From: Ignavibacterium sp.
GTDB taxonomy: Bacteria; Bacteroidota; Ignavibacteria; Ignavibacteriales; Ignavibacteriaceae
Direction of reading: 5' to 3'
NCBI GenBank assembly: GCA_020354005.1
Contig: CP070637.1
Span: forward strand, 1,869,049-1,931,487
DNA: 62,439 bases
Shown: positions 37,742 through 49,923 of the stretch, one piece after another
Layout: every line of letters starts with the position of its first letter
Numbering within the stretch: position 1 is the first letter of the stretch
Position numbers and translations under genes: made by a program
The notes under the pieces: generated by a model
Databases searched by the model: none
What the model was told of the DNA's origin: nothing
Seen by the model: the letters and a program-made list of their open reading frames with translations, nothing else

Positions 37742-38539
37742 TCATTCAACACTTACATGAATACTTTCAGCAACTCCAATAAACATCCCAATAACGTTAT
37801 CTCCTTGCACATTCCACTCAACTGATCCGCCACCTTGAATGAATGGATCATTTATTCCCTGACTGGAGGTGCGCGAATCAAAATAAGGTTTAAAGGCTTT
37901 ATCAAACGCGAACACTTGAATTAATCTGCTGCCATCATAAATAGAAGAACGATATTGTTCTGGTAATGATGAGGATCTGACACCTACCGTTGAGTTACCA
38001 GTTATGAACTGTGGCACAGATACCGAAAAATAGTCTGGGGCTCTTTCAACAGTTGAGGAACTAATAATCCACAAAGCAGAATATACTTCATCTTGAAACG
38101 AACGCACTTCTGCCTCAAGATAATAGCCGCTTTGATTATAATTAGATTGCACTATTATTGGGATTTCCGGTATGTAGGTTTTACTATAAATAAAAGTTTC
38201 ATCACGTTCGGCAAACAACTCGTAAACCTGACCACTTTCAATATAAAATTCGTACAATGACTGGTATAACCCTTCGGAGTTATAATGTAATGGAATAATC
38301 TGTGTGCTGTCTATTCTTAAGTATGCGCTTATATTTTTCAGTTCCGCCTGTTCGATATTATACTGTGTACCCAAAGGTAAAGTTTTTGTAAATCGCACAC
38401 CCGGAAATCTTTCATCCGGTCTCAACTCTGCTTGCACTACTGTAAATTCTTCATGGGCAATACTCGTGTTTACAACCTGTTCATTTTCGCAACCGATTAG
38501 AGGAAAAAATAAAGTTGTTATTAGAAATATTTTTTTCAT
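37742..38539 (-). CDS. DUF4249-like lipoprotein (usual partner of a TonB-dependent receptor)
   Basis: MKKIFLITTLFFPLIGCEN is a lipoprotein signal, using the ATG at 38539, 2 nt after the receptor stop. The track begins at 38548. Size and position immediately downstream of a CarboxypepD_reg-type TonB receptor fit DUF4249. Confidence 0.55.
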   Translation of the reverse strand: MKKIFLITTLFFPLIGCENEQVVNTSIAHEEFTVVQAELRPDERFPGVRFTKTLPLGTQYNIEQAELKNISAYLRIDSTQIIPLHYNSEGLYQSLYEFYIESGQVYELFAERDETFIYSKTYIPEIPIIVQSNYNQSGYYLEAEVRSFQDEVYSALWIISSSTVERAPDYFSVSVPQFITGNSTVGVRSSSLPEQYRSSIYDGSRLIQVFAFDKAFKPYFDSRTSSQGINDPFIQGGGSVEWNVQGDNVIGMFIGVAESIHVSVE

Positions 38540-38541
38540 TT

Positions 38542-40872
38542 TTACCATTTAACAATAATTCCAACTGAGGGAATAAACGGAAAAAGTGTAATTTGCTTTA
38601 CAACAGGTACCGGTTTTCCATTATCATTCTCCTCCAATACAACGTAGCGTGCAAAAGGATTATCACGATTGTAAACATTGTACAGATTTATGTAAGTTTC
38701 AAATTGTGAATTAAGCCAAATAAAATTATATGTGGCATTTAAGTCTAACCTATGATATGAAGGAAACTGAGTTGAGTTTATCTCAGAGTAGTTAAATTGT
38801 ACTTCACTATTTGTTCCTATCCCAATTGGATTAAAAATAAACTGACCGGGTGGTAATGTGTACCACTGGCCGGTAGCATAAGACCAGGTTGCACTTAAAT
38901 TCAGTTTTTTAAAGATATCGTAAGCAACCGCAACTGAAATATCATGACGTCTGTCATAACGTGGGTAGAATAACCTTCCATTGTTTAATTCTGAAAATTG
39001 ACGTTGTGTCCACGATAAAGTATATCCGATCCAACCGGTTAATCTTCCTATACCTTTGTTCAGGAAAAATTCTATACCATACGATTCGCCATTTCCCTGT
39101 GTGAATTGTTCTTCTATATTTTTATTTATTGGATCTAGCTGAGGATTGTTAACAAATTCATATAAACCGATCATATCTTTATAATATCCCTCAACACTCA
39201 ATAAATATTCCTTGTTATTCCAGTATGAATTAAATCCAATAACAAATTGAGTTGATCTGCTTGGATCTATCAATGATGTTGAGGGGTACCAAAGATCGGT
39301 AGGCAAAGTAATATCATTTCTTATAAGAAAATGAATGAATTGATGAACAACTGCAAAACCACCTTTGAGAATTAAATTTGGGTTAAAAGAATAAGAAAAT
39401 GAAATTCTTGGTTCAAATCTTAAGAACTTCTGTTCGTTAAAATAGTACAACCTACCTCCATAATTCGCCCAGAATTCAGGGGTAAACTGAGATTCAGCCT
39501 GAACATAAAATGATGCTTCAATCGATGTAATATCATCACCTGCATATGGATCCCTTTCAAGCACATCCGAGTAAACATCACTATATACCAGATTGTAGTT
39601 GTGCAAGAATAATTCAAATCCCATTTTGAATGTATGGTCCTGATGCCATATAATTTCTGCATTTTGTCTAAAACTTAAATCTGTGAGATTGGAATTAGAG
39701 AAGTAGGTATAGGACGTTACACTTGTGGGATTAACACCGATTTTTGATGAAAAATCATAATTAACAAAACTCAATATCGAATTTAGAAAGAGTGATTTAG
39801 TGCTTGCCTGCTGCCAGTTTAAACTAAGATTTACATTACTCCAGGAAATATCATAATCGGTACCTGTTGCGTTTGAAGGACTATATGCGTGATCTTGATT
39901 ATAGAGAGCACTCAACGAGAGAGTATTTCTTTCAGTTAGTAAAAATGTGATCTTTCCATTAAGATCAACAAAGTTATATCGGGGTACCCTACTGGAAGTT
40001 CTGAAATTCTTTTGAATAAGATCATAATACATTGCTCGTCCCGAGATCATATAAGTGCTCTTTTCTGATAATGGACCCTCAAAAGATGCAAATGAATTAA
40101 TGAGTCCAACTCCTATTACACCTTTCTCTTTTTCTTTAGTGCCCGATTTTAATTTTATATCAAGCACTCCAGAAAGCCGCCCGCCGTACTCAGCAGGAAA
40201 CGCACCTTTAATCAATCTTACATCTCCCAAAGCATTTGAGTTGAAGGTGCTTGCTATATTACCAAGATGTGCCGGATTATAGACAACAACTCCATCGACC
40301 AAGGTTAAAGTCTGGTCCGGTGAACCACCTCGCACATATAATCCTGATGATATGTCCGATGCTTTATTCACACCGGGGAGCATTTCTAATGATTTAAATA
40401 AATCGACCTCACCACTTATCGTCGGCAGTTTTTCTAAGAGCTCCGGAGAAACATCGATAAGACTGGAAATATTCTTTTCAATTTTTTTCCCTTCAACAAC
40501 AACCTCATCTAACTTAATACTATCTGCGTACATTTCGATGTTAAGTGTTTGATAAGAAGTATCTCCTATGAGAGATAATTGTCTAATTGTAGTTTTGTAA
40601 CCAATGTGTCTAAAGATAAATATGTACAGGCCTCTTTCTAACGAAGGAACCACATAAAATCCATACCTGTTTGCTGAGGAGCCTGTGAACGGCTGTTCAT
40701 TTATATTTAGAGAATCTTTGTACACAAGAATATTTGTACCAATTAGTGCTTCACCCGTAACAACGTCAGTAATAAAACCAGAAACACTAACCTTTGATTC
40801 TTGTGCAAATATTGTATTAAGATAGATGGAAAGTTGAGTTGAGATGAGCAGTATCAGGATTAAGAATATCAA
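38542..40872 (-). CDS. TonB-dependent receptor with an N-terminal carboxypeptidase-regulatory-like domain
   Basis: 776 aa.
- CarboxypepD_reg-like segment: VSGFITDVVTGEALIGTNILV.
- Plug domain: EVVVEG...LPGV......GLYVRGGSPDQTLTLVDG..VYNP.HL.
- Long beta-barrel ending in IIVKW.
- TTG start as tracked. Confidence 0.9.
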   Translation of the reverse strand: MIFLILILLISTQLSIYLNTIFAQESKVSVSGFITDVVTGEALIGTNILVYKDSLNINEQPFTGSSANRYGFYVVPSLERGLYIFIFRHIGYKTTIRQLSLIGDTSYQTLNIEMYADSIKLDEVVVEGKKIEKNISSLIDVSPELLEKLPTISGEVDLFKSLEMLPGVNKASDISSGLYVRGGSPDQTLTLVDGVVVYNPAHLGNIASTFNSNALGDVRLIKGAFPAEYGGRLSGVLDIKLKSGTKEKEKGVIGVGLINSFASFEGPLSEKSTYMISGRAMYYDLIQKNFRTSSRVPRYNFVDLNGKITFLLTERNTLSLSALYNQDHAYSPSNATGTDYDISWSNVNLSLNWQQASTKSLFLNSILSFVNYDFSSKIGVNPTSVTSYTYFSNSNLTDLSFRQNAEIIWHQDHTFKMGFELFLHNYNLVYSDVYSDVLERDPYAGDDITSIEASFYVQAESQFTPEFWANYGGRLYYFNEQKFLRFEPRISFSYSFNPNLILKGGFAVVHQFIHFLIRNDITLPTDLWYPSTSLIDPSRSTQFVIGFNSYWNNKEYLLSVEGYYKDMIGLYEFVNNPQLDPINKNIEEQFTQGNGESYGIEFFLNKGIGRLTGWIGYTLSWTQRQFSELNNGRLFYPRYDRRHDISVAVAYDIFKKLNLSATWSYATGQWYTLPPGQFIFNPIGIGTNSEVQFNYSEINSTQFPSYHRLDLNATYNFIWLNSQFETYINLYNVYNRDNPFARYVVLEENDNGKPVPVVKQITLFPFIPSVGIIVKW

Positions 40873-41602: not shown

Positions 41603-41674
<72 letters not shown>

Positions 41675-41685
41675 CAAAAATTGAA

Positions 41686-41711
41686 ATCCTGATATGTATC
41701 GGGATTTTTTA
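41686..41711 (+). terminator. rho-independent terminator after tRNA-Asn
   Basis: atcctgat atgt atcgggat forms an 8-bp stem with one G-U pair, followed by tttttt. Confidence 0.7.
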
Positions 41712-41834
41712 ATTAATACCTATACTAGTATACATTAACACACTTTTTGTAGGAAGCAATTACCATTCTTCTCATGATATCCAACTATTAGTCGCCCGAG
41801 AATTTTTTACCATCGCGTATTTGGTTAATTTTAG

Positions 41835-41861
41835 GTTCACAAAAATTCTTTTATTGTGAAC
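41835..41861. promoter_or_regulatory. 8-bp perfect inverted repeat GTTCACAA-N11-TTGTGAAC upstream of gdh (candidate operator)
   Basis: Read directly from the sequence. Its centre is about 55 nt upstream of the gdh ATG. The half-sites contain TCACA / TGTGA, but in the opposite relative order to a CRP/FNR box. Confidence 0.35.
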
Positions 41862-41901: not shown

Positions 41902-43188
41902 ATGAACAAAAAATCTTATAATCCTTTCGAAACTGCTCAGGCAAAATTCGATCAGGCTGCAGAGTTGTTAGAGTTAGATAAAGCCACAAGAGAATTATTA
42001 CGATATCCACTTAGAGAATATCACTTCAGTATACCTGTGCGTATGGATGACGGCAGTGTAAATGTATTTAGAGGTTTCAGAGTGCAGCATAATGATGCAC
42101 GTGGACCTGCAAAAGGGGGAATACGATTTCACCCGCAGGAAACAATCGATACAGTCCGCGCACTTTCAATGTGGATGACCTGGAAGACAGCTGTAGTTGA
42201 CTTACCATTAGGCGGCGGGAAGGGCGGCGTTATCTGTGATCCTCATTCCTTAAGTGCTACTGAACAGGAAAAACTTTGCCGTGGCTGGGTTCGGCAGATT
42301 TTTAAAAATGTAGGCCCGAATGAAGACGTTCCTGCACCCGATGTGATGACAAGCGCACAGCATATGTTGTGGATGCTTGATGAATTTGAAGTACTCAATG
42401 GTGCAAAGAGCCCTGGATTTATTACAGGCAAGCCTGTAGGTATGGGCGGCTCGCTTGGAAGAAGAGAAGCGACAGGATATGGTGTAATGATTACCGTTCG
42501 TGAAGCGTTAAAAGAATTAAGTATAAAACCGCAGGACACTACTGCAAGTTTTCAGGGATTTGGAAATGTTTCTCAATACGCTCTGGAACTATATAACCAG
42601 ATGGGCGGCAGTGCAATTTGTGTTTCTTGTTGGGATCAGGAAGATCAGACCAGCTATTCATTCAAGAAAAAAGATGGCATTGATCTGAAAGAGCTGATGG
42701 ATATTACCGATATCTTTGGCAGCATTGATAAAACAAAGGCTAAAGAATTAGAATATGAAGTTTTACCTGGTGATGCGTGGATTGAACAGGAAGTAGATAT
42801 CTTAATGCCCGCTGCATTGGAAAATCAGATTAATGAGGATAATGTTTCAAAGATAAGTAACCAGGTTAAGATAATAGCTGAAGGTGCAAATGGACCAACA
42901 ACCAATGAAGCTGATGAAGTGATAACTGAAAGAAATATTTTTGTCATTCCTGATTTTCTTGCAAACGCCGGTGGTGTTACCTGCAGCTATTTTGAACAAG
43001 TGCAAAGCAACACCAATAACTACTGGGAAAAGGATGAAGTGCTTGCCAAGCTTGATTACAAGATGAGATCTGCTTTTGTTGCGGTTAATGATTTTGCTAA
43101 AAGTCATAAATTGAATATGCGGGATGCAGCTTATGCAATTGCAGTAGACCGTGTTGCTCATGCTTGCCACGATAGAGGATGGGTGTAA
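41902..43188 (+). CDS. gdhA: glutamate dehydrogenase (Glu/Leu/Phe/Val dehydrogenase family, about 47-kDa type)
   Basis: 428 aa. Motifs: GPAKGGIRFHP, the catalytic-Lys region LGGGKGG, GFGNV in the dinucleotide fold, EGANGPTT and ANAGGVT.SYFE. Confidence 0.93.
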   Translation: MNKKSYNPFETAQAKFDQAAELLELDKATRELLRYPLREYHFSIPVRMDDGSVNVFRGFRVQHNDARGPAKGGIRFHPQETIDTVRALSMWMTWKTAVVDLPLGGGKGGVICDPHSLSATEQEKLCRGWVRQIFKNVGPNEDVPAPDVMTSAQHMLWMLDEFEVLNGAKSPGFITGKPVGMGGSLGRREATGYGVMITVREALKELSIKPQDTTASFQGFGNVSQYALELYNQMGGSAICVSCWDQEDQTSYSFKKKDGIDLKELMDITDIFGSIDKTKAKELEYEVLPGDAWIEQEVDILMPAALENQINEDNVSKISNQVKIIAEGANGPTTNEADEVITERNIFVIPDFLANAGGVTCSYFEQVQSNTNNYWEKDEVLAKLDYKMRSAFVAVNDFAKSHKLNMRDAAYAIAVDRVAHACHDRGWV

Positions 43189-43219
43189 TAAGTTAATTAA
43201 TGTCAATTAATATTATTAG

Positions 43220-44947
43220 ATGATAGCAGGAAACAAAAAACAACTTCCCGAATTTTCAGAAAAGTTTTTTAATTCAAGTGAGCAGATTACCGGCATTGGA
43301 ACCGGTGAGTATGGTGGCAAAGCGAGCGGTCTTATCTTTATAAATGATATACTTAACTCAAAGTTTAATGCTGATGAATTCCCTGACTTTACTGTAAATA
43401 TTCCTGCTATGACTGTAATTCCGACTGATGTATTCGATACATTTTTGCAGCGGAACAATCTTTATGATATTGCAACTTCAGATGAAAGTGATGATAACAA
43501 AGCGCTGGCGTTCCAAAAAGCAGATCTTCCGTTTGAAATACTTGGTGACTTAAGAAGATTGATTTCAAATGTTAAAAGTCCATTAGCCATTCGTTCTTCC
43601 AGTATGCTTGAGGATGCTATCCACGAGCCTTTTGCTGGAATTTATTCAACTAAGATGACTCCGAATAACCAACCGGAAATTGATACAAGATTTCAGAAGT
43701 TGGTTGAAGCAATTAAACTGGTTTATGTTTCGGTATACTTTAAGTCAGCTAGGGATTATATGGCAGCAACCAAACATAATATTGATGAAGAAAAAATGGC
43801 TGTAATAATTCAGGAGGTTGTTGGTAACCGGCATGGCGATCGTTACTATCCTGAACTTTCCGGTGTTGCGCGCTCATATAATTTCTACCCATTCGGAAAT
43901 TCAAAACCTGAACAAGGCGTGGTTAACCTTGCCTTTGGGTTGGGTAAAACAATAGTAGATGGTGGGGTATCCTGGGTATATTCACCAACCTTACCGAAAG
44001 AGGGTCCACCATATGGTTCGGTAGGTGAATTGATGAAGCAGACACAAACGAAGTTCTGGACGGTAAATATGGGTAAACCACAAGATTATGATCCCATAAA
44101 CGAAATAGAGTTTATGAATAATGAGAATATAACTACTTCAGAGGCTGATGATACATTGAATTACGTTGCGTCAACTTATATAGCAAGTTCAGATAGAATT
44201 TCAATCGGTGTCGGCTCTCCTGGTCCTCGGATTATAAACTTTGCTCGCATTTTAGTGCTGAATGATGTGCCTTTAAACAATTTAATTAAATCACTACTAT
44301 CAATGTGTGAGGAAGCTCTTAAAACACCTGTGGAGATTGAATTTGCAGTTACATTTAATCCACACCGGTTTGGTTTTCTGCAGGTAAGGCCTATGGTTGT
44401 TTCCACAGATGAAATTGAAGTTGCTGAAGAAGAACTATCAGCCAAAAATATCTTAGTAGCATCAGATAATGTATTAGGCAATGGAATAAATGATACCATA
44501 ACTGATATCGTTTATGTTGTCCCCGAAAAGTTCGAGAAAAAGTACACCAATCAAATTGCAAATGAACTGGAAGCAATTAATAAAAATCTTGTTAAGGAAG
44601 GTAAACCTTATCTTCTAATTGGATTTGGGAGATGGGGTAGCTCTGACTCTTGGCTTGGGATACCTGTTAATTGGGGTCAGGTATCCGGTGCTAAAGCTGT
44701 TGTGGAAGCTGCACTGGAAAAGATGAACATTGAGTTCAGTCAGGGTTCTCATTTCTTTCATAATCTTACAAGCTTTAAAGTAAGTTATTTCTCTGTTAAA
44801 GAAGCTGATACAAAAAAAATAAATTGGAATTGGCTGAAAGATCAGAAGACTAAACAAGAAACTGAATTTATTCGTCACGTTAAGTTGTCTTCACCTTTAA
44901 AGATTAAAGTTGATGGCAGGAGAGGACGTGGAGTAATAATAATTTAA
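43220..44947 (+). CDS. PEP/pyruvate-binding (PPDK_N ATP-grasp) domain protein lacking the PEP-utiliser TIM barrel; paralogue A
   Basis: 575 aa.
- PPDK_N hallmarks: YGGKASGL, LAIRSSSMLEDAIHEPFAGIYST, MAVIIQEVVG, GLGKTIVDGG, PVEIEFAV, FLQVRP.
- C-terminal module: LLIGFGRWGSSDSWLGIPV...SQGSHFFHNL, shared with the next gene.
- It lies 31 nt after gdh. Confidence 0.8.
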   Translation: MIAGNKKQLPEFSEKFFNSSEQITGIGTGEYGGKASGLIFINDILNSKFNADEFPDFTVNIPAMTVIPTDVFDTFLQRNNLYDIATSDESDDNKALAFQKADLPFEILGDLRRLISNVKSPLAIRSSSMLEDAIHEPFAGIYSTKMTPNNQPEIDTRFQKLVEAIKLVYVSVYFKSARDYMAATKHNIDEEKMAVIIQEVVGNRHGDRYYPELSGVARSYNFYPFGNSKPEQGVVNLAFGLGKTIVDGGVSWVYSPTLPKEGPPYGSVGELMKQTQTKFWTVNMGKPQDYDPINEIEFMNNENITTSEADDTLNYVASTYIASSDRISIGVGSPGPRIINFARILVLNDVPLNNLIKSLLSMCEEALKTPVEIEFAVTFNPHRFGFLQVRPMVVSTDEIEVAEEELSAKNILVASDNVLGNGINDTITDIVYVVPEKFEKKYTNQIANELEAINKNLVKEGKPYLLIGFGRWGSSDSWLGIPVNWGQVSGAKAVVEAALEKMNIEFSQGSHFFHNLTSFKVSYFSVKEADTKKINWNWLKDQKTKQETEFIRHVKLSSPLKIKVDGRRGRGVIII

Positions 44948-44960
44948 TGGTTGGTTGGAA

Positions 44961-47723
44961 ATGAACGAAAAAAATAAACCTCTTGTAGATATAGTAGATG
45001 ACCTGAAAGAGCGCGCAAAGGAGCTAAACTGTTTGTATGCAGTTCAGGAAATACTGCAGGACTTCGATGCAAGCGTTGAAGATATATGTGACAGATTAAT
45101 AAAGGCAATACCACATGGCTGGCAGTATCCGGATGTATGTCAGGCTTGCATAACTCTCAGGCATACAAAGTATCAATCCGAAGGATTTATAGAAACTGAA
45201 TGGTCTCAATGTACTGAGATAATTGTGCGTGATGAGGTTGTTGGGAAAATTTGTGTATTGTACATAGAGGAACGGCCAATTGCTGACGAGGGACCATTCC
45301 TTAAAGAAGAGCGTAAACTTATTGATACAATTGCGGAACTGTTTGGACTATTTTTATTGCATAAGCAGCTAAAAGCAATTTTTGAAGGTCAGGATTTAAA
45401 GGATGAAGAGCAAAAAACTGAGTGGTTGGTAATAATCGATCTGTTGAGACGGACTGATCCGAATTTACTTATCAGGGTATCAAGAAGGATGGTAAACTAC
45501 CTTTTCTGGAATGGAATAAAAGAAGCAGAGGAGTTGATGAATCACTTTAGTCCATCATATAAAAGGGGAATTAATCCTTTAGAAGAAATAAACAAACCAT
45601 TTCAAAAACAGATAAGTGCCGATATACTTTCAATCAGCAACGACATATTTAAAGTAGCAGGAAAGCATTTAAAGAAAGAGCAGACCTTGGAACTAATCCA
45701 AAACTGGATTAAAGAAGACCGGTCGAACTTCCTGGTTAATACACTGGAAAATTCCGGTTCCACATTATTACAGATTAGCGGTGCAATAGAAAAATATTAT
45801 CATTTATCACCGCTTGGTTTAGAACTATCAAAACCCCGCGAAAGGAGTTTAAGAGTATCATTAACAAGGCGACTCCTAAATGATAAGTCAAGTTTTGTGC
45901 GTATTGCAGGAAAAGTTATCGAGGTTAAAGATTTTAATGATCTGATTAAACGTATAATCTTTCCGGTGGGAAGTCACGGAAAACTTGGCGGTAAAAGCTC
46001 AGGTCTTTTCTTAGCAATGCAAATCTTGAAAAAGGCAACGGCAAATAAAGAAATACTTGGAGAGGTCAAGTATCCTAAAACTTGGTATATAACTTCCGAT
46101 GGAATTTTCAATCTTATGAATTACAATGATCTGTCGGATGTAATCGAACAGAAATATAAAAATATCGATCAGGTAAGACAGGAGTATCCATATATAATTC
46201 AGTTGTTTAAAAATTCACTTTTTGATCCTGAAATTATTAAGGGTCTTTCTGTTGCTTTAGATGATTTGGGTGAAGTTCCAGTGATAGTCCGAAGCTCAAG
46301 TCTACTTGAAGACCAGGTGGGAGCATCTTTTGCGGGCAAATACAAAAGTTTGTTCCTTGCTAATCAAGGTTCAAAGGAAGAACGTCTCATTGCTTTGATG
46401 GATGCAATTGCAGAAGTTTATGCATCTACTTTTGGTCCCGATCCTGTTGAATACCGGGCACAGCACGGTCTGCTCGATTATCATGAAGAGATGGGGATTA
46501 TGATACAGGAAGTTGTTGGTAAAAAAGTTGGAAAATATTTATTACCTGCTTTTGCCGGTGTTGCATTTAGCCAGAATGAATTTAGGTGGTCGAGCCGGAT
46601 TAAAAGGGAAGATGGATTGATAAGAGTTGTTCCCGGTCTTGGTACAAGGGCGGTTGATCGATTAAGCGATGATTATCCAATCTTAATTGCACCCGGACAG
46701 CCGAGATTGCGTGTTAATGTTACACAGGATGAAGTGATTAGATATTCACCAAGGCATATTGATGTTATGAATTTAGAGACTCGTTCCTTTGAAACAATCG
46801 AAATAGATAATTTGCTAAAACAGTATGGTAAGGAATATCCCCAAATAAGCAAGCTTGTTTCAGTTTTGAAAGATGATATTCTTAAAAAACCGAGAGCATT
46901 GGGAATTGATTTCGAGAAAGACCAATTTGTTGTAACTATGGAGGGCTTAATTACCGATACACATTTTGTTAAACAGGTAAGTACAATTCTATCCGAGTTG
47001 CAGGATAAATATGGTAATCCTGTTGATATTGAGTTTGCACACGATGGAGAGAACTTATACTTATTACAGTGCCGCACCCAGAGTTTTGTTGGTGATAGCA
47101 AGCCTGCGGAAATCCCAGAAGATATACCTGATGAAAAAATTATATTCAGTGCAAACCGTTTTATCTCAAACGGTGTTGTTTCTAATATCACCCTCATTGT
47201 TTACGTTGATCCTCAAAAGTATAGCGAGATTGAAAGTCACGAAGAATTATTAGCAGTCGGAAAAGCAATCGGAAAATTAAACTCTATTTTACCACAGCGC
47301 CAATTTATCCTAATGGGACCCGGACGTTGGGGCAGCAGAGGTGATATTAAGCTTGGTGTAAGTATTACCTATTCCGATATTAACAATACCAGTATGCTAA
47401 TTGAAATTGCCCGTAGAAAGAAAGGTTATGTACCAGATCTTTCCTTTGGTACACATTTCTTTCAGGATCTTGTAGAGGGAAATATCCGTTACCTACCACT
47501 TTACCCTGATGATGAAGGAATTATTTTTAATGAAGATTTTCTCGACAAATCAAAAAACGTACTTCCCGACGTTTTCCCGGAGGCTAAAGAATTATCCGAT
47601 GTAATTAAGATAATTAACGTGCCGGATAGTACCAATGGTGAGGTTTTAAATGTTCTTATGAATGCTGATATGGAAGAGGCAGTGGCAATCCTCGCAAATC
47701 AGGATCAATATAGTTCAAAATAG
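44961..47723 (+). CDS. PEP/pyruvate-binding (PPDK_N ATP-grasp) domain protein with an N-terminal sensor-like module; paralogue B
   Basis: About 920 aa.
- N-terminal module: ELNCLYAVQEIL...PHGWQYPDVCQACITL...GPFLKEERKLIDTIAELFG.
- PPDK_N hallmarks: LGGKSSGL, VIVRSSSLLEDQVGASFAGKYKS, MGIMIQEVVG, GLGTRAVD, PVDIEFAH, LLQCR.
- C-terminal module: ILMGPGRWGSRGDIKLGV...SFGTHFFQDL.
- The ATG at 44961 is 13 nt after the paralogue A stop; the track begins at the TTG at 44955. Confidence 0.8.
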   Translation: MNEKNKPLVDIVDDLKERAKELNCLYAVQEILQDFDASVEDICDRLIKAIPHGWQYPDVCQACITLRHTKYQSEGFIETEWSQCTEIIVRDEVVGKICVLYIEERPIADEGPFLKEERKLIDTIAELFGLFLLHKQLKAIFEGQDLKDEEQKTEWLVIIDLLRRTDPNLLIRVSRRMVNYLFWNGIKEAEELMNHFSPSYKRGINPLEEINKPFQKQISADILSISNDIFKVAGKHLKKEQTLELIQNWIKEDRSNFLVNTLENSGSTLLQISGAIEKYYHLSPLGLELSKPRERSLRVSLTRRLLNDKSSFVRIAGKVIEVKDFNDLIKRIIFPVGSHGKLGGKSSGLFLAMQILKKATANKEILGEVKYPKTWYITSDGIFNLMNYNDLSDVIEQKYKNIDQVRQEYPYIIQLFKNSLFDPEIIKGLSVALDDLGEVPVIVRSSSLLEDQVGASFAGKYKSLFLANQGSKEERLIALMDAIAEVYASTFGPDPVEYRAQHGLLDYHEEMGIMIQEVVGKKVGKYLLPAFAGVAFSQNEFRWSSRIKREDGLIRVVPGLGTRAVDRLSDDYPILIAPGQPRLRVNVTQDEVIRYSPRHIDVMNLETRSFETIEIDNLLKQYGKEYPQISKLVSVLKDDILKKPRALGIDFEKDQFVVTMEGLITDTHFVKQVSTILSELQDKYGNPVDIEFAHDGENLYLLQCRTQSFVGDSKPAEIPEDIPDEKIIFSANRFISNGVVSNITLIVYVDPQKYSEIESHEELLAVGKAIGKLNSILPQRQFILMGPGRWGSRGDIKLGVSITYSDINNTSMLIEIARRKKGYVPDLSFGTHFFQDLVEGNIRYLPLYPDDEGIIFNEDFLDKSKNVLPDVFPEAKELSDVIKIINVPDSTNGEVLNVLMNADMEEAVAILANQDQYSSK

Positions 47724-47733
47724 GTATAGTAAA

Positions 47734-49185
47734 TTATTGAGTAACTTCCTCTGTTTCCCTTACTAATTTTTCACCACTCCGAACCCACTTTATAAGTCCT
47801 CCCATAACATTTACTGCTTCATATCCATTGGATTCTAAAAATGATAAAGCGTAACGTGACCGGTTACCGGACAAGCACTGAACCATTATTTTTTTATCCT
47901 TCGGTACTTCTTCAAGGTGATTGTATAGTTGTGTGTGTGCAATATTGTAGGCACCCTTAATGAATCCTATTTCCTCTAATTCAGAGGCTCTGCGGACATC
48001 AAGCAAAAAGTTGTTTTCATCCACCAGCATCTCTTTTAATTCCGTAGCCGTAATGTCCTCCGAAGTAATAAATTCTCCACCACTTGATTTATACTCGGCT
48101 AAATCATCATCAGTAAAGAAACCTTGGATGTTATCTAGACCTATCCTGATAAGATCGATAACTGCCTCTTGATATTGATCTTCCTCTAAGATTAAATAGA
48201 TAGATTTATCAGGTGTAACATAGCAGCCAACTGTAGTGTTAAATGCTGAATCCATCGGTGCAAATATTGAACCACTTAAATGCCCGCTTTTATATTTTTT
48301 CCAGTTCCGTGTGTCAATAATAATTGTGTCATCATTACTAACAACTTCATTTATTACAGAGGTTTTTAATCTTGTTGGCTCGGGGAATTTTCCTAAATAT
48401 TTGGGACCAGTTTTATTTTCAAACTTCATTCTGGCAAAGTACATAGGCGGCTCCGGCTGACCTGATAAAATATAATTTACAAATCCATCTTTGTTACCTG
48501 CTTCCCTTATTGCCGGATTAAATTGTAATTCATAGCCTACAGTAGATGAAGGAACTGCACCCAATGCCTTCCCGCAAGCAGAACCGGCACCGTGCCCCGG
48601 CCAAACCTGCAGATAATTCTGGAATGATTTGAATTTTTGTAATGACTCGTATAGTTCTTTTGCAGAAGGAACCATAGCACCTTCCATCCCTGCTGCTGAT
48701 TCAAGTAAGTCGGGTCTTCCCACATCACCTACAAAAACAAAGTCTCCTGAAATAATCCCCATTGGATTACCACCACCACCTGCTAAATCGGATACCACAT
48801 AACAAATGTGTTCCGGTGTGTGACCGGGTGTATGAACTATCTCAAACTTAATATTTCCAAACTGAAAAGTGTCACCGTCTTTGAGAAGTCTTGAAGTATA
48901 ATCACCATTTTTTACCCATTCATATTTCCAATCGTCTGTTCCTTCATCGGAAACGAGGATTTGAATTTTTAGACGATCTCCAAATTCTTTTAATCCAGAA
49001 AGATAATCTGCGTGAATATGCGTTTCTGTACCAGCAACAATTTTTAATCCCTCTGCATTTGCGATGTTGATATACCTGTCAATATCACGCATCGGATCAA
49101 TTATAACCGCTTCTCTTGTTTGCTGGCAGCCAATGAGGTAAGAGTATTGTGCTAACTTCGGTTCAAATATTTGTCTGAAAAACAT
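47734..49185 (-). CDS. MBL-fold persulfide-dioxygenase-like domain fused to two rhodanese-homology domains (CstB-like architecture)
   Basis: 483 aa.
- Metallo-beta-lactamase motifs: ETHIHADYLSG, HTPGHTPEH, GDVGRPDL.
- The middle rhodanese-like domain has no active-site Cys.
- The C-terminal rhodanese has the loop VQCLSGNRS. Confidence 0.85.
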   Translation of the reverse strand: MFFRQIFEPKLAQYSYLIGCQQTREAVIIDPMRDIDRYINIANAEGLKIVAGTETHIHADYLSGLKEFGDRLKIQILVSDEGTDDWKYEWVKNGDYTSRLLKDGDTFQFGNIKFEIVHTPGHTPEHICYVVSDLAGGGGNPMGIISGDFVFVGDVGRPDLLESAAGMEGAMVPSAKELYESLQKFKSFQNYLQVWPGHGAGSACGKALGAVPSSTVGYELQFNPAIREAGNKDGFVNYILSGQPEPPMYFARMKFENKTGPKYLGKFPEPTRLKTSVINEVVSNDDTIIIDTRNWKKYKSGHLSGSIFAPMDSAFNTTVGCYVTPDKSIYLILEEDQYQEAVIDLIRIGLDNIQGFFTDDDLAEYKSSGGEFITSEDITATELKEMLVDENNFLLDVRRASELEEIGFIKGAYNIAHTQLYNHLEEVPKDKKIMVQCLSGNRSRYALSFLESNGYEAVNVMGGLIKWVRSGEKLVRETEEVTQ

Positions 49186-49209
49186 AGTTCATCTCTGTTT
49201 TTGTATGAT

Positions 49210-49256
49210 AAAAAAGTTAAGGTTATTTCTTAGATATTAATCTTTGAAATAACCTT
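49210..49256 (-). terminator. rho-independent terminator after the peroxiredoxin gene
   Basis: An 11-bp perfect stem pairs aaggttatttc (49219..49229) with gaaataacctt (49246..49256). On the minus strand it is followed by aacTTTTTT. It separates the peroxiredoxin gene from the MBL-rhodanese gene. Confidence 0.7.
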
Positions 49257-49284
49257 ACACAATTTAGTTTATTTCTAAATTTCC

Positions 49285-49923
49285 TCACTTATTTGGCTGC
49301 GGTGTTATACGCAAATAAGGTTTGACTGCTTTGTAACCTTTGGGAAACCTTTCCTTCAATTCTTTCTCATTCTGAATTGAGGTAACAATGACAACATCAT
49401 CGCCATCCTTCCAATTAACCGGGGTAGAAACACCATAATTTGCAGTTAATTGTAATGAGTCTGTTACTCTTAGGATCTCAGTAAAATTTCTTCCGGTGGA
49501 AGCCGGATAGGTAATTGTTAGTGCGACAGTTTTATCAGGTTTTATTATAAATACAGATCTGACAGTTTCTGTTTTATCGGCATTTGGGTGCACCATATCG
49601 TAAAGCTGAGATACTTTTTTATCAGCATCGGCAATTACCGGAAAATTCATCTCAGTATTTTGTGTTTCATTAATATCCTTTATCCATTCGGCGTGTGCAC
49701 TTGATGGGTCAACAGACAAACCAAGTACTTTCACACCTCTTTTATCAAACTCGGATTTTAGTTTTGCAACCTCTCCAAGTTCGGTAGTGCAAACCGGTGT
49801 AAAGTCTTTGGGATGAGAGAATAATATTCCCCATGAATCTCCAAGATAATCGTAAAAATTTATTTTTCCTTCACTCGATTCCTGTGTGAAGTCCGGTGCT
49901 TTATCACCCAATCGAATAGACAT
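49285..49923 (-). CDS. 1-Cys peroxiredoxin (Prx6-type)
   Basis: 212 aa. It has the peroxidatic motif DFTPVCTTE. Only one Cys is present in the whole protein. The Prx6-like C-terminal extension is present. Confidence 0.9.
   Translation of the reverse strand: MSIRLGDKAPDFTQESSEGKINFYDYLGDSWGILFSHPKDFTPVCTTELGEVAKLKSEFDKRGVKVLGLSVDPSSAHAEWIKDINETQNTEMNFPVIADADKKVSQLYDMVHPNADKTETVRSVFIIKPDKTVALTITYPASTGRNFTEILRVTDSLQLTANYGVSTPVNWKDGDDVVIVTSIQNEKELKERFPKGYKAVKPYLRITPQPNK

Follow-up and report, generated by a model that had tools for sequence, protein, structure and literature searches.

The gdh-A-B locus

The window analyzed here is a 62,439-nucleotide stretch of contig CP070637.1 from Ignavibacterium sp., in which three genes lie closely packed on the + strand. 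The first of these, gdh (41902-43188), encodes a hexameric-type glutamate dehydrogenase (GDH) of 428 amino acids with Pfam domains ELFV_dehydrog_N (E 1e-53) and ELFV_dehydrog (E 2e-69), and its nearest solved structures are the GDHs of Thermococcales, Thermotoga and Bacillus (E ~1e-119). Gene A (43220-44947; 575 amino acids) follows after 31 nt, and gene B (44955-47723) starts either at TTG 44955, giving 922 amino acids, or at ATG 44961, giving 920; the ATG, which is the start in the database gene call (P0121), lies 13 nt behind A. The first-pass annotation had described two paralogous reading frames tightly behind gdh, and all three reading frames were confirmed at the positions described, as was every motif it had listed: GGKASGL/GGKSSGL, RSSS.LED, IQEVVG, GLG...VD, PV(E/D)IEFA, LQ.R, G.GRWGS and (Q/F)G(S/T)HFF. 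A and B share 27% identity (E 2e-35) over both their ATP-grasp domains and their C-terminal modules, which is far above chance, and are paralogues.

Upstream of gdh lies an inverted repeat, GTTCACAAAAA / TTATTGTGAAC (41835-41861), which had been proposed as a shared upstream palindrome. The repeat is present, occurring once in the window where chance alone would yield 0.88 occurrences at the stringency used, but conservation upstream of gdh is lacking in relatives with A proteins of 88% and 75% identity, and from these comparisons it is probably not a conserved operator. A five-locus alignment revealed another element, the TTTGGTTAATTTT box (41820-41832, + strand), some 70 nt before gdh begins; recognizable variants of it precede gdh at four further loci, Calditrichota among them.

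Domain structure of A and B

Both proteins carry a complete PPDK_N nucleotide-binding ATP-grasp domain, located at residues 31-405 of A (43310-44434; Pfam, E 1e-34) and residues 343-724 of B (45981-47126; Pfam, E 2e-60). GGK34, R125-SSS, Q198, E374, Q388 and R390 (A numbering) are invariant across the A and B families. With 8000 word-sharing candidates compared, homologues of A number at least 7999 at E<=1e-5, the best 120 of which are 59-91% identical to it. The AF2 model of A (pLDDT 86, pTM 0.86) gave rifampin phosphotransferase (RPH), HpeI, PEP synthase and PPDK as its top Foldseek matches, with E values down to 7e-15. Since chains consisting of the ATP-grasp only (5hv6 and HpeI 9goj) are among these matches, the similarity appears to come from the ATP-grasp. 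Neither A nor B has a PEP-utilizers or PEP-utilizers_C Pfam match, even at E<=1. In agreement with the first-pass annotation, Pfam, PDB profile, Foldseek and hhalign searches thus describe PPDK_N proteins with no TIM-barrel acceptor domain and no recognizable swivel domain.

The C-terminal module that the two proteins had been said to share is real and about 170 amino acids long. In A it is a new alpha/beta domain according to the AF2 model and conservation (residues 396-575; 44405-44944), and in B it occupies, together with a tail, residues 713-922 (47091-47720), with GPGRWGS (788-794), the glutamate in LIEIA, and SFGTH834FFQD. The invariant residues of the A module are N454, G470-R471-W-G473-S, D476, G480, E496 and S507-x-G509-x-H511-F-F. 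Among 156 copies of the module (representatives at 50% identity), R471, G473, E496 and S507 are each found in 156 and H511 in 155, bearing out the earlier proposal that the histidine of G[ST]HFF is invariant. This histidine, His511 of A (codon 44750-44752, in SQGSHFFHN), is invariant in two homologue alignments and is a candidate catalytic or phospho-carrier residue; its counterpart in the A/B comparison is His834 of B (codon 47454-47456). Even a clade with no more than 22% identity to A retains the motif. Clustering at 50% identity gave 2307 clusters with the module, which is preceded by PPDK_N in every architecture examined.

Sequence and profile searches with the module returned zero Pfam and zero PDB matches. 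Modeled alone, it reached a pLDDT of 88.6, and Foldseek of this model against PDB and BFVD gave no match at E<0.001. In hhalign, the comparison with swivel seeds yielded a probability of 0.3%, and that with the swivel region of PtsP was negative. The C-terminal region is thus not the standard PEP-utilizer mobile domain but a previously undescribed domain in which a cluster of Arg, Glu, Ser and His is kept essentially invariant. Because it has no detectable relation to known phosphohistidine domains, it is the conservation of the histidine that suggests a phospho-carrier role. A literature search turned up no paper on this gdh-A-B system and, as had been supposed, no characterized member with this architecture.

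B has additional parts that the first-pass annotation overlooked. Its N-terminal ~340 amino acids are GAF-like and helical. This conserved region (residues 1-340; 44955-45974) has a mean column identity of 69%, and its first ~135 residues are weakly GAF-like (ELNCLY, GWQYPD, EGPFLKEERKLI). A GAF match was obtained for six of 12 B orthologues, with a best E value of 3e-4, and also for residues 86-129 of P0159. A PDB sequence search with the N-terminal region had no match, and the remaining ~200 residues gave no fold assignment. Equally unremarked was a minimal nucleotidyltransferase domain at the C-terminus of most B orthologues (68/71), which shows weak similarity to MntA. The B of this window is a short form lacking this domain.

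Conservation of the gene neighborhood

The neighborhood was surveyed at the loci of the 80 best matches, nearly all from metagenome-assembled genomes, so that the counts describe close orthologues. B directly follows A in 75/76 loci, with a median gap of ~0 nt and many overlapping pairs; the two genes are thus conserved neighbors. They also occur as natural A-B fusion proteins, with two PPDK_N stretches in P0241 and P0242 and two C-module stretches in P0241-P0243. In 63 of 72 loci, spread over about ten named phylum-level groups, the gene immediately upstream of A is a gdh orthologue, and all three proteins are highly conserved in sequence across phyla. Where gdh is not adjacent, the neighbors are peptidases and an oligopeptide transporter. 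A TIM-barrel gene, which would be expected of a split PpsA, is not a conserved neighbor in the 160 loci examined, and the loci of both families examined show no other conserved pathway genes near the module. A and B make up an obligate pair of ATP-binding enzymes, and with gdh they form a conserved functional module.

A frequent fourth neighbor, missed in the first-pass annotation, is a metallophosphoesterase (Metallophos) gene, which lies convergent right after B in 46/61 loci; no Metallophos homologue was found in the window. As the window lacks this gene and its B lacks the nucleotidyltransferase domain, both are dispensable.

The link to GDH, which had been suggested from this locus, reaches beyond the A-B pair to other paralogous clades and another class of GDH. 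Two further clades, one fused to a response-regulator receiver (REC) domain and one divergent (~551 amino acids), adjoin GDH genes of a different class. In the REC-fused clade, an NADP-GDH of the E. coli GdhA class is directly upstream in 28/57 loci, and GDH, present in 45 of 80 loci, is the sole conserved neighbor. At one locus (L032), a second gdh is directly followed by a gene for a REC-PPDK_N protein.

Relation to known systems

RPH, PEP synthase and PPDK share with A and B the PPDK_N-type ATP-grasp and its nucleotide-site motifs. Among structures, they match the A model best (5hv3/5hv1, E ~1e-14; 2ols; 1kbl), and they also supply the top NCBIfam partial matches; RPH, like A and B, has a further domain with an invariant histidine after the ATP-grasp. 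In A and B, however, sequence, profile and Foldseek comparisons show that this following domain is not the PEP-utilizers swivel; there is no TIM barrel or rifampin-binding acceptor domain; the proteins form a paralogous pair; and their context is GDH rather than antibiotic resistance or gluconeogenesis.

Enzyme I-Ntr (PtsP) offers an analogy, combining an N-terminal GAF-type sensor with a catalytic-histidine module at the carbon/nitrogen interface; of these likenesses, the GAF-like similarity of B is the one computed here. PtsP uses PEP instead of ATP and has canonical swivel and TIM-barrel domains but no ATP-grasp, whereas A and B carry an ATP-grasp and lack the canonical swivel and TIM barrel. 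The E. coli enzyme, with its GAF domain and histidine-phosphorylated module, senses glutamine and 2-oxoglutarate.

HpeHI, CreHI and phenylphosphate synthase PpsAB are two-component small-molecule dikinases (PMC12167813) and, like A and B, consist of two co-encoded dikinase-superfamily proteins; HpeI (9goj) matches the ATP-grasp of A structurally (E 7e-10). HpeHI divides its domains between the subunits, with nothing but the ATP-grasp on one and the swivel and substrate-binding domains on the other (PMC12167813), whereas A and B each combine an ATP-grasp with the new C-module and lack a swivel.

Proposed function and alternatives

The reading that we tentatively favor, at less than even probability, is that A and B are a signal-controlled, ATP-driven pair of covalent modifiers acting on GDH, or on its metabolic node, at the carbon/nitrogen branch point through the histidine of the new domain. 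The ATP-grasp would bind ATP in the manner of PEP synthase, PPDK or RPH and phosphorylate or pyrophosphorylate His511 in A and His834 in B, with the C-module standing in for the canonical swivel domain. The phosphoryl group would then be handed from the histidine to the target, the co-encoded GDH. A and B would act as a heteromer, and the GAF-like and helical region of B may serve as a metabolite sensor or in target docking. In most lineages, the nucleotidyltransferase domain on B would add possible AMPylation, and the neighboring metallophosphoesterase could undo the modification; the version in this window would be a reduced form lacking both. Dikinase chemistry is presumed throughout. A regulatory role is favored because the cassette is fused to sensor-type domains (GAF-like and REC), and because B orthologues carry a minimal nucleotidyltransferase and have a convergent Metallophos gene. 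The same logic of a dedicated modifier for one branch-point enzyme is proposed as in GlnE (glutamine synthetase adenylyltransferase), AceK (isocitrate dehydrogenase kinase/phosphatase) and MntA-type protein adenylyltransferases, although the A/B core has no sequence relation to GlnE or AceK, and modification of GDH by A and B is a proposal.

The linkage to gdh fits just as well with a small-molecule substrate that takes part in the GDH reaction. With rather modest probability, A and B could be the two subunits of an ATP-dependent ligase or a small-molecule (di)kinase acting on 2-oxoglutarate, glutamate, ammonia or a nicotinamide cofactor, which GDH would supply or remove and for which the C-module or the B N-terminus would bind the acceptor. 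All characterized relatives encountered here, namely PEP synthase, PPDK, RPH, HpeHI and PigC, act on small molecules (PMC12167813), and the invariant cluster of Arg, Ser, His and Glu could just as well serve to bind a carboxylate substrate. As two structurally different GDH classes that have only their chemistry in common are both linked to the family, a shared metabolite explains the linkage at least as well as a shared protein surface, and the peptidase and oligopeptide transporter neighbors provide a context of amino-acid catabolism. On the other hand, no acceptor domain of TIM-barrel or rifampin-binding type is recognizable, further pathway genes are not conserved around the module, and REC, GAF-like and minimal nucleotidyltransferase fusions are more typical of signaling enzymes than of catabolic kinases. 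Another reading is a phosphorelay for carbon/nitrogen status like the nitrogen PTS with its GAF-containing Enzyme I-Ntr, in which a metabolite is sensed and phosphoryl groups pass to targets encoded elsewhere, with gdh merely co-transcribed in the same regulon. The GAF-like N-terminus of B, the REC-fused paralogues and a helix after the invariant histidine (in the AF2 model of A and in alignments) would fit, but GDH is the sole conserved neighbor in both families examined, separate paralogous clades each adjoin a GDH gene, arguing for a direct relation, and conserved genes for an HPr-like or EIIA-like partner are missing from the vicinity, making this reading unlikely.

If A and B instead helped GDH to assemble or served it as a scaffold, whether non-catalytically or in an ATP-dependent way, and their ATP-grasp did no more than sense nucleotides, this would account for the tight genomic coupling and the high conservation of all three proteins across phyla. 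Such a role is very improbable, since across the 2307 clusters both paralogues keep the nucleotide-site residues and the catalytic-looking set of Arg, Glu, Ser and His invariant, as expected for enzymes and not for scaffolds. A split ordinary PEP synthase or PPDK, with the C-module as a diverged swivel and the TIM-barrel PEP/pyruvate domain elsewhere, is largely refuted and scarcely credible. Its one weak hint is a phmmer alignment of B with PEP synthase 8a8e that extends ~25 residues past the ATP-grasp into the first swivel strands (IIFSANRFISNGVVSNITLIV vs VILKGLGASPGIGAGRVVVI; E 0.0036). Against it, PF00391 and PF02896 have no match even at E<=10, the signature T/SxxGGxxxH (PMC12167813) is missing, and Foldseek of the module model retrieved no PPDK, RPH or Enzyme I domain, in line with the hhalign result and the lack of a conserved TIM-barrel gene nearby. 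Moreover, there would be no need in a split enzyme for both subunits to carry the same pair of domains, as A and B do.

Whether as a covalent regulator of GDH or in another of these roles, the three-gene set recurs across many bacterial phyla and thus probably has a controlling or serving part in a key step that connects carbon with nitrogen metabolism.

The gdh, A and B genes

The cluster consists of three open reading frames on the forward strand: gdh at 41902-43188 (+; 428 aa), gene A at 43220-44947 (+; 575 aa) and gene B at 44955-47723 (+; 922 aa when read from a TTG codon). The database entry for B, P0121, starts at an ATG at 44961 (+) and is 920 aa long. The intergenic gaps are 31 nt between gdh and A, and 13 nt between A and the ATG of B. 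The three genes are as described in the first-pass annotation, made from the sequence alone, and the sequence motifs it listed were all found at the expected places in A and B. The two proteins can be aligned with each other from the ATP-grasp domain through the C-terminal domain (27% identity, E 2e-35), and members of the family carry the generic database names "PEP/pyruvate-binding domain-containing protein", "hypothetical protein" and "pyruvate, phosphate dikinase".

The gdh product contains the ELFV_dehydrog_N and ELFV_dehydrog domains (Pfam, E 1e-53 and 2e-69) and matches glutamate dehydrogenases (GDHs) of the PDB over its full length (E ~1e-119). Its score against the NCBIfam model GdhA_Arch (471) lies below the equivalog cut-off of 750, and substrate specificity is therefore assigned from family membership; by this sequence-based assignment, the protein is a hexameric GDH of the ELFV family. 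In an alignment of 59 GDHs linked to A/B, the NAD(P)-binding domain has two short insertions, shared by the 59 in comparison to three Thermococcales GDHs, at residues ~243-252 and ~279-286 (nt ~42628-42657 and ~42736-42759, +), with Trp244, Tyr252, Ala280 and Tyr285 at least 95% conserved among the 59. Judged against these three Thermococcales sequences alone, the insertions could be candidate docking or modification sites.

The box TTTGGTTAATTTT (41820-41832) lies some 70 nt before the gdh start codon, and variants of it are recognisable upstream of gdh in four other loci, two Calditrichota among them; it may serve the gdh-A-B module as a promoter or operator element. The adjacent palindrome, proposed in the first-pass annotation as a shared upstream element, is real and unique in the window, but as a conserved operator it was rejected: it is not conserved in relatives whose A proteins are 88% and 75% identical, and in the window its frequency does not exceed that expected by chance at the stringency of the search. 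Further upstream, about 230 nt from gdh, a tRNA-Asn(GTT) gene (41603-41675, +) is followed by a hairpin at 41684-41707, with 11-nt arms AAATCCTGATA/TATCGGGATTT, and then by a T-run, which together look like the tRNA-Asn terminator. As this terminator-like hairpin separates tRNA-Asn from gdh, gdh probably has its own promoter, predicted to lie within roughly 190 nt after the hairpin.

Further upstream, on the opposite strand (37742-40872, -), are two ORFs, one of 776 aa and one of 268 aa whose N-terminus resembles a signal peptide; judged by sequence, the first has the appearance of a TonB-dependent-receptor-like protein of the outer membrane and the second that of a lipoprotein. Convergent to B on its downstream side, at 47734-49923 (-), are two genes, one for a 483-aa protein with metallo-beta-lactamase-fold and rhodanese parts and the other for a 1-Cys peroxiredoxin of 212 aa. 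Both also follow B in L167, a locus with an 88% identical A; more distant loci lack this arrangement, which makes it lineage-specific.

Genomic context of A and B

A and B are paired, co-inherited and sometimes fused ATP-grasp proteins of the PPDK_N type. Scanning a single genome for each GTDB species recovered at least 585 loci with a relative of A, and context was counted in the best 80 of these (L001-L080), which are mostly metagenome-assembled, with ORFs called mechanically, so that the percentages describe close orthologues. The best 80 loci come from Calditrichota, Bacteroidota, Ignavibacteriota, Zixibacteria, Acidobacteriota, Aminicenantes, Latescibacteria, Planctomycetota, Chlorobiota and bins labelled Anaerolineae, and they include relatives of Melioribacter and Caldithrix. 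Among the 80 loci, A is followed by B in 75 of the 76 with room, with a median gap of ~0 nt and many overlaps, and the pair first noticed in the window is thus kept as neighbours.

The family is also genomically tied to GDH. In 63 of 72 loci from the same best 80, the gene immediately before A is a gdh (66-80% identical), which bears out the linkage suspected in the first-pass annotation, and across phyla the gdh, A and B products are each 55-80% identical. Unbiased clustering of the neighbouring ORFs revealed only one further conserved gene, encoding a metallophosphoesterase (PF00149, ~288 aa) that lies convergently and immediately after B in 46 of 61 loci (e.g., L001 8838-9701 and L081 13187-14053, both -). 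Nine loci have no upstream gdh; in six of these, an oligopeptide transporter, peptidases or a RimK-like ATP-grasp protein is encoded there, in one a PPDK_N paralogue, and the others gave no informative match. In two Bacteroidales-type loci with no adjacent gdh, the ORF directly upstream of A is of 288 aa (L042, 8997-9863, +), encoding an ATP-grasp protein of the RimK/glutathione-synthetase type, or an equivalent 289 aa (L063, 9030-9899, +).

The ATP-grasp core

Exactly one PPDK_N domain (PF01326) is found by Pfam in each protein, at residues 31-405 of A (E 1e-34) and 343-724 of B (E 2e-60), both above the gathering score, and beyond this domain Pfam at E<=1 returns noise only. The ATP-grasp parts give partial, sub-threshold matches in NCBIfam to the models for PEP synthase, PigC/RedH and rifampin phosphotransferase. 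The AlphaFold2 model of A, built from 116 homologues, is confident (pLDDT 86, pTM 0.86), and a Foldseek search of the PDB with it (E<=0.001) returned only the dikinase family, namely RPH (E 7e-15), HpeI, PEP synthase and PPDKs, with the matches to RPH, PEP synthase and PPDK ranging from E 7e-15 to 1e-6. Several of the matched chains consist of the ATP-grasp domain only (5hv6; HpeI, 9goj), indicating that the similarity comes from this domain; the whole-A search holds no separate information on the C-terminal domain.

Five residues are invariant in 116 A and B sequences (A numbering): K34, the Lys of GGK; R125, the Arg of RSSS; E374, the Glu of IEFA; and Q388 and R390, the Gln and Arg of LQxR. 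We take these nucleotide- and Mg-site residues to correspond to the catalytic residues of PPDK. Given this invariant nucleotide site, both A and B look catalytically competent.

The C-terminal module

A and B each end in a new domain of about 170 residues (the C-module) bearing an invariant set of Arg, Glu, Ser and His. Searching 1.84 billion representatives with a C-module profile (E<=1e-3) gave 2307 clusters at 50% identity, and in every architecture checked PPDK_N directly precedes the C-module. Among these are the A type (~575-586 aa), the B types (~915 and ~1060 aa), forms fused to a response-regulator receiver domain (REC; ~990 aa) and others of 700-815 aa. In addition, there are natural A-B fusions (P0241, P0242 and P0243; 1523-1654 aa) with two C-module stretches each; the two that were scanned, P0241 and P0242, also have two PPDK_N stretches each, and P0242 carries a nucleotidyltransferase tail.

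Arg471, Gly473, Gly480, Glu496, Ser507 and Gly509 (A numbering) are each conserved in 156 of 156 C-module copies, His511 in 155 of 156 and Asn454 in 154 of 156, in agreement with the earlier proposal that the His of the G[ST]HFF motif is invariant. In the C-module model, GRWGS lies in the loop after one strand, Glu496 at the end of the next strand, and Ser507 and His511 at the start of the following helix, the two conserved loops being the least confident parts. From this order of secondary-structure elements alone, the conserved residues are predicted to make up a single site along the sheet's C-terminal edge.

The identification of the C-module as the PEP-utilizers swivel domain was rejected as far as such a relationship is detectable, with four independent approaches negative. 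PF00391 matched neither whole A and B (Pfam, E<=1) nor 26 isolated C-modules (E<=10), and Pfam at E<=10 found nothing recurrent in the latter. A C-module profile run against all PDB sequences retrieved no dikinase or Enzyme I, the only matches being chance-level ones to longin (E 0.013), and hhalign against a swivel profile of four sequences only (E. coli PpsA, PtsI, PtsP and a metagenomic EI) gave a probability of 0.3%. The C-module model on its own is confident (pLDDT 88.6, pTM 0.88), and the structural comparison, which consists of Foldseek against the PDB and BFVD, yielded nothing at E<0.001, the best values being E 0.09 and 0.05 with TM-scores of about 0.36-0.38; no dikinase, RPH or Enzyme I domain appeared in either list. 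The signature of the swivel phosphohistidine domain, T/SxxGGxxxH (PMC12167813), is replaced by SQGSH in A and SFGTH in B, consistent with the canonical motif not having been seen on first inspection. No swivel-type GGxTSH protein is encoded in L001-L081, and one is encoded in L162.

As the swivel searches by sequence, profile and structure were all negative, the C-module is treated as a distinct alpha/beta domain, on the strength of sequence and model comparisons, for which there is no existing domain model. It may instead be a very remote derivative of the swivel domain: in a phmmer alignment of B with the PEP synthase 8a8e (E 0.0036), the sole hint of such kinship, the match runs ~25 residues past the ATP-grasp domain and reaches the first swivel strands of the PEP synthase. 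A third, acceptor-binding domain (TIM barrel, rifampin-binding or carbohydrate-binding) was not found in A or B with Pfam or NCBIfam, and no gene for one is conserved near the 80 + 80 loci of the A and REC-type scans, which agrees with the TIM barrel having been reported absent before.

The flanking domains of gene B

Upstream of its ATP-grasp domain, B has an N-terminal region of ~340 aa that is conserved, with a mean column identity of 69% among 12 orthologues from different lineages. The first ~135 residues give weak GAF (PF01590) matches in 6 of the 12 orthologues, below the gathering score (best E 3e-4) and with none in the window's own B; the remainder of the region has no match in Pfam or among PDB sequences. 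At the other end, 68 of 71 B orthologues in L001-L080 are ~1060 aa long and carry a C-terminal minimal nucleotidyltransferase domain (PF01909), with a GS...DIDIL motif and weak MntA-like similarity (e.g., residues about 915-1060 of the long-form orthologue P0159). Neither the window's B nor the rest of the window has this domain (NTP_transf_2, GS...DxD), and a search of the window for nucleotidyltransferase and metallophosphoesterase homologues was negative. The window's B is the rare short form, and its lineage has lost the tail.

In L170 (7732-10439), the B orthologue is called as two ORFs of 213 and 684 aa, and in L169 (7732-10494), a near-identical contig from another metagenome sample, it is intact at 920 aa; a frameshift, a pseudogene or an error of assembly accounts for the split. 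A role in anti-phage defence was also considered and rejected: PADLOC is blank for A, B and the REC-type core, and gives no more than generic matches for the nucleotidyltransferase tail and the metallophosphoesterase.

Other GDH-linked clades

The link to GDH is a property of the whole A/B family. In L032 (15892-20263, -), a 992-aa protein of REC-PPDK_N-C-module architecture is encoded immediately after a second GDH (44% identical). A metagenome scan for this REC-type clade gave a best 80 loci (L085-L164; 784 kb in total), in which, as in the A scan, percentages describe close orthologues. Of the 57 with room, 28 encode a GDH of the E. coli GdhA class directly upstream of the REC-type gene and in the same orientation, and one such GDH that was checked scores 761 bits against an NADP-GDH equivalog cut-off of 536. 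GDH genes, one or more per locus, occur in 45 of the 80 loci, and GDH is the only conserved neighbour. Under a rough assumption of one to three GDH genes per several-megabase genome, chance would give well under one in 784 kb, compared with the 56 observed. In at least 11 of the 80 loci, an A-like protein of ~575 aa (37-42% identical to A) is encoded beside the REC-type paralogue, which suggests a second, parallel "short plus long" pair. A metallophosphoesterase homologue lies directly downstream of the REC-type gene, on the same strand, in L085 and L148.

A divergent clade of 551-aa proteins, 22% identical to A, retains GGK, RSS, GRLGS and QGTHF, holds two G[ST]HF motifs and escapes the PPDK_N Pfam model at E 0.01. 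One member (L074, 4981-6636, -) adjoins a gene for a 453-aa GDH, and another (L060, 6763-8421, -) has a GDH gene within about 2 kb.

Possible functions of the A/B pair

A and B share the PPDK_N-type ATP-grasp domain with the PEP synthase/PPDK/RPH superfamily. In the PEP-utilising dikinases (PEP synthase, PPDK, RPH and glucan water dikinase), ATP is cleaved to AMP and its beta- and gamma-phosphates pass via a phosphohistidine. These enzymes have a swivel phosphohistidine domain and an acceptor domain; both were looked for in A and B and not found, and these proteins are therefore not filed among the dikinases. They also differ from the two-component dikinases HpeHI, CreHI and PpsAB, in which one subunit is ATP-grasp only and the other carries the swivel and substrate-binding domains (PMC12167813), whereas A and B both hold an ATP-grasp domain and the same C-module. 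By analogy, A/B likely work in a way related to the PEP-utilising dikinases: the ATP-grasp domain would phosphorylate the invariant His of the C-module, as it does the swivel His in relatives, and the phosphoryl group would then be passed on. GDH itself is a possible, though doubtful, recipient. It is favoured because sensor-type domains (GAF-like, REC) recur in fusions with the catalytic cassette, a domain resembling protein adenylyltransferases is present in most B proteins, the frequent phosphoesterase neighbour could serve as an eraser, and no other pathway genes are conserved. In the main competing explanation, in itself unlikely, the pair would be a kinase or ligase for a small molecule, namely a metabolite of GDH; all characterised relatives act on small molecules, and the two different GDH classes share only their chemistry. 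Less likely than either are a PTS-Ntr-type phosphorelay to other targets, which is distinctly improbable, a scaffold role, which is very improbable, and a split but otherwise ordinary PEP synthase, which is scarcely credible.

With GDH as the target, a more complete scheme can be drawn, which is somewhat unlikely to hold as a whole: GDH would be under post-translational control in about ten or more phyla, through a heteromeric pair and a new His domain, with AMPylation, eraser and REC arms. The A/B heteromer would move phosphate from ATP onto GDH when B senses a metabolite, using the His-bearing domain that has no detectable structural relative. In most lineages, the nucleotidyltransferase domain would add an AMPylation arm and the metallophosphoesterase would be a dedicated eraser, and the REC-controlled paralogues would act likewise on NADP-GDH.

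Significance

For bacterial GDH, we know of no dedicated covalent regulator of the kind that glutamine synthetase has in GlnE and isocitrate dehydrogenase in AceK. Nothing was found in the searched literature connecting PPDK_N-C-module proteins with GDH, and the A/B module combines a possibly new fold with an unrecognised GDH link. The hypothesis that GDH is the target can be tested directly with three purified proteins. As a new domain in the place of the swivel domain within the dikinase superfamily, the C-module would change the view of the mechanism of this superfamily. The hosts, including Ignavibacteriota, Calditrichota, Bacteroidota, Acidobacteriota, Zixibacteria and Aminicenantes, are abundant in sediments and soils. 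The size of the family (2307 clusters for the C-module alone, in several clades), its identity across phyla and its coupling to two GDH classes therefore point to something new at the glutamate/2-oxoglutarate node, be it a regulatory mechanism or an ATP-dependent reaction.
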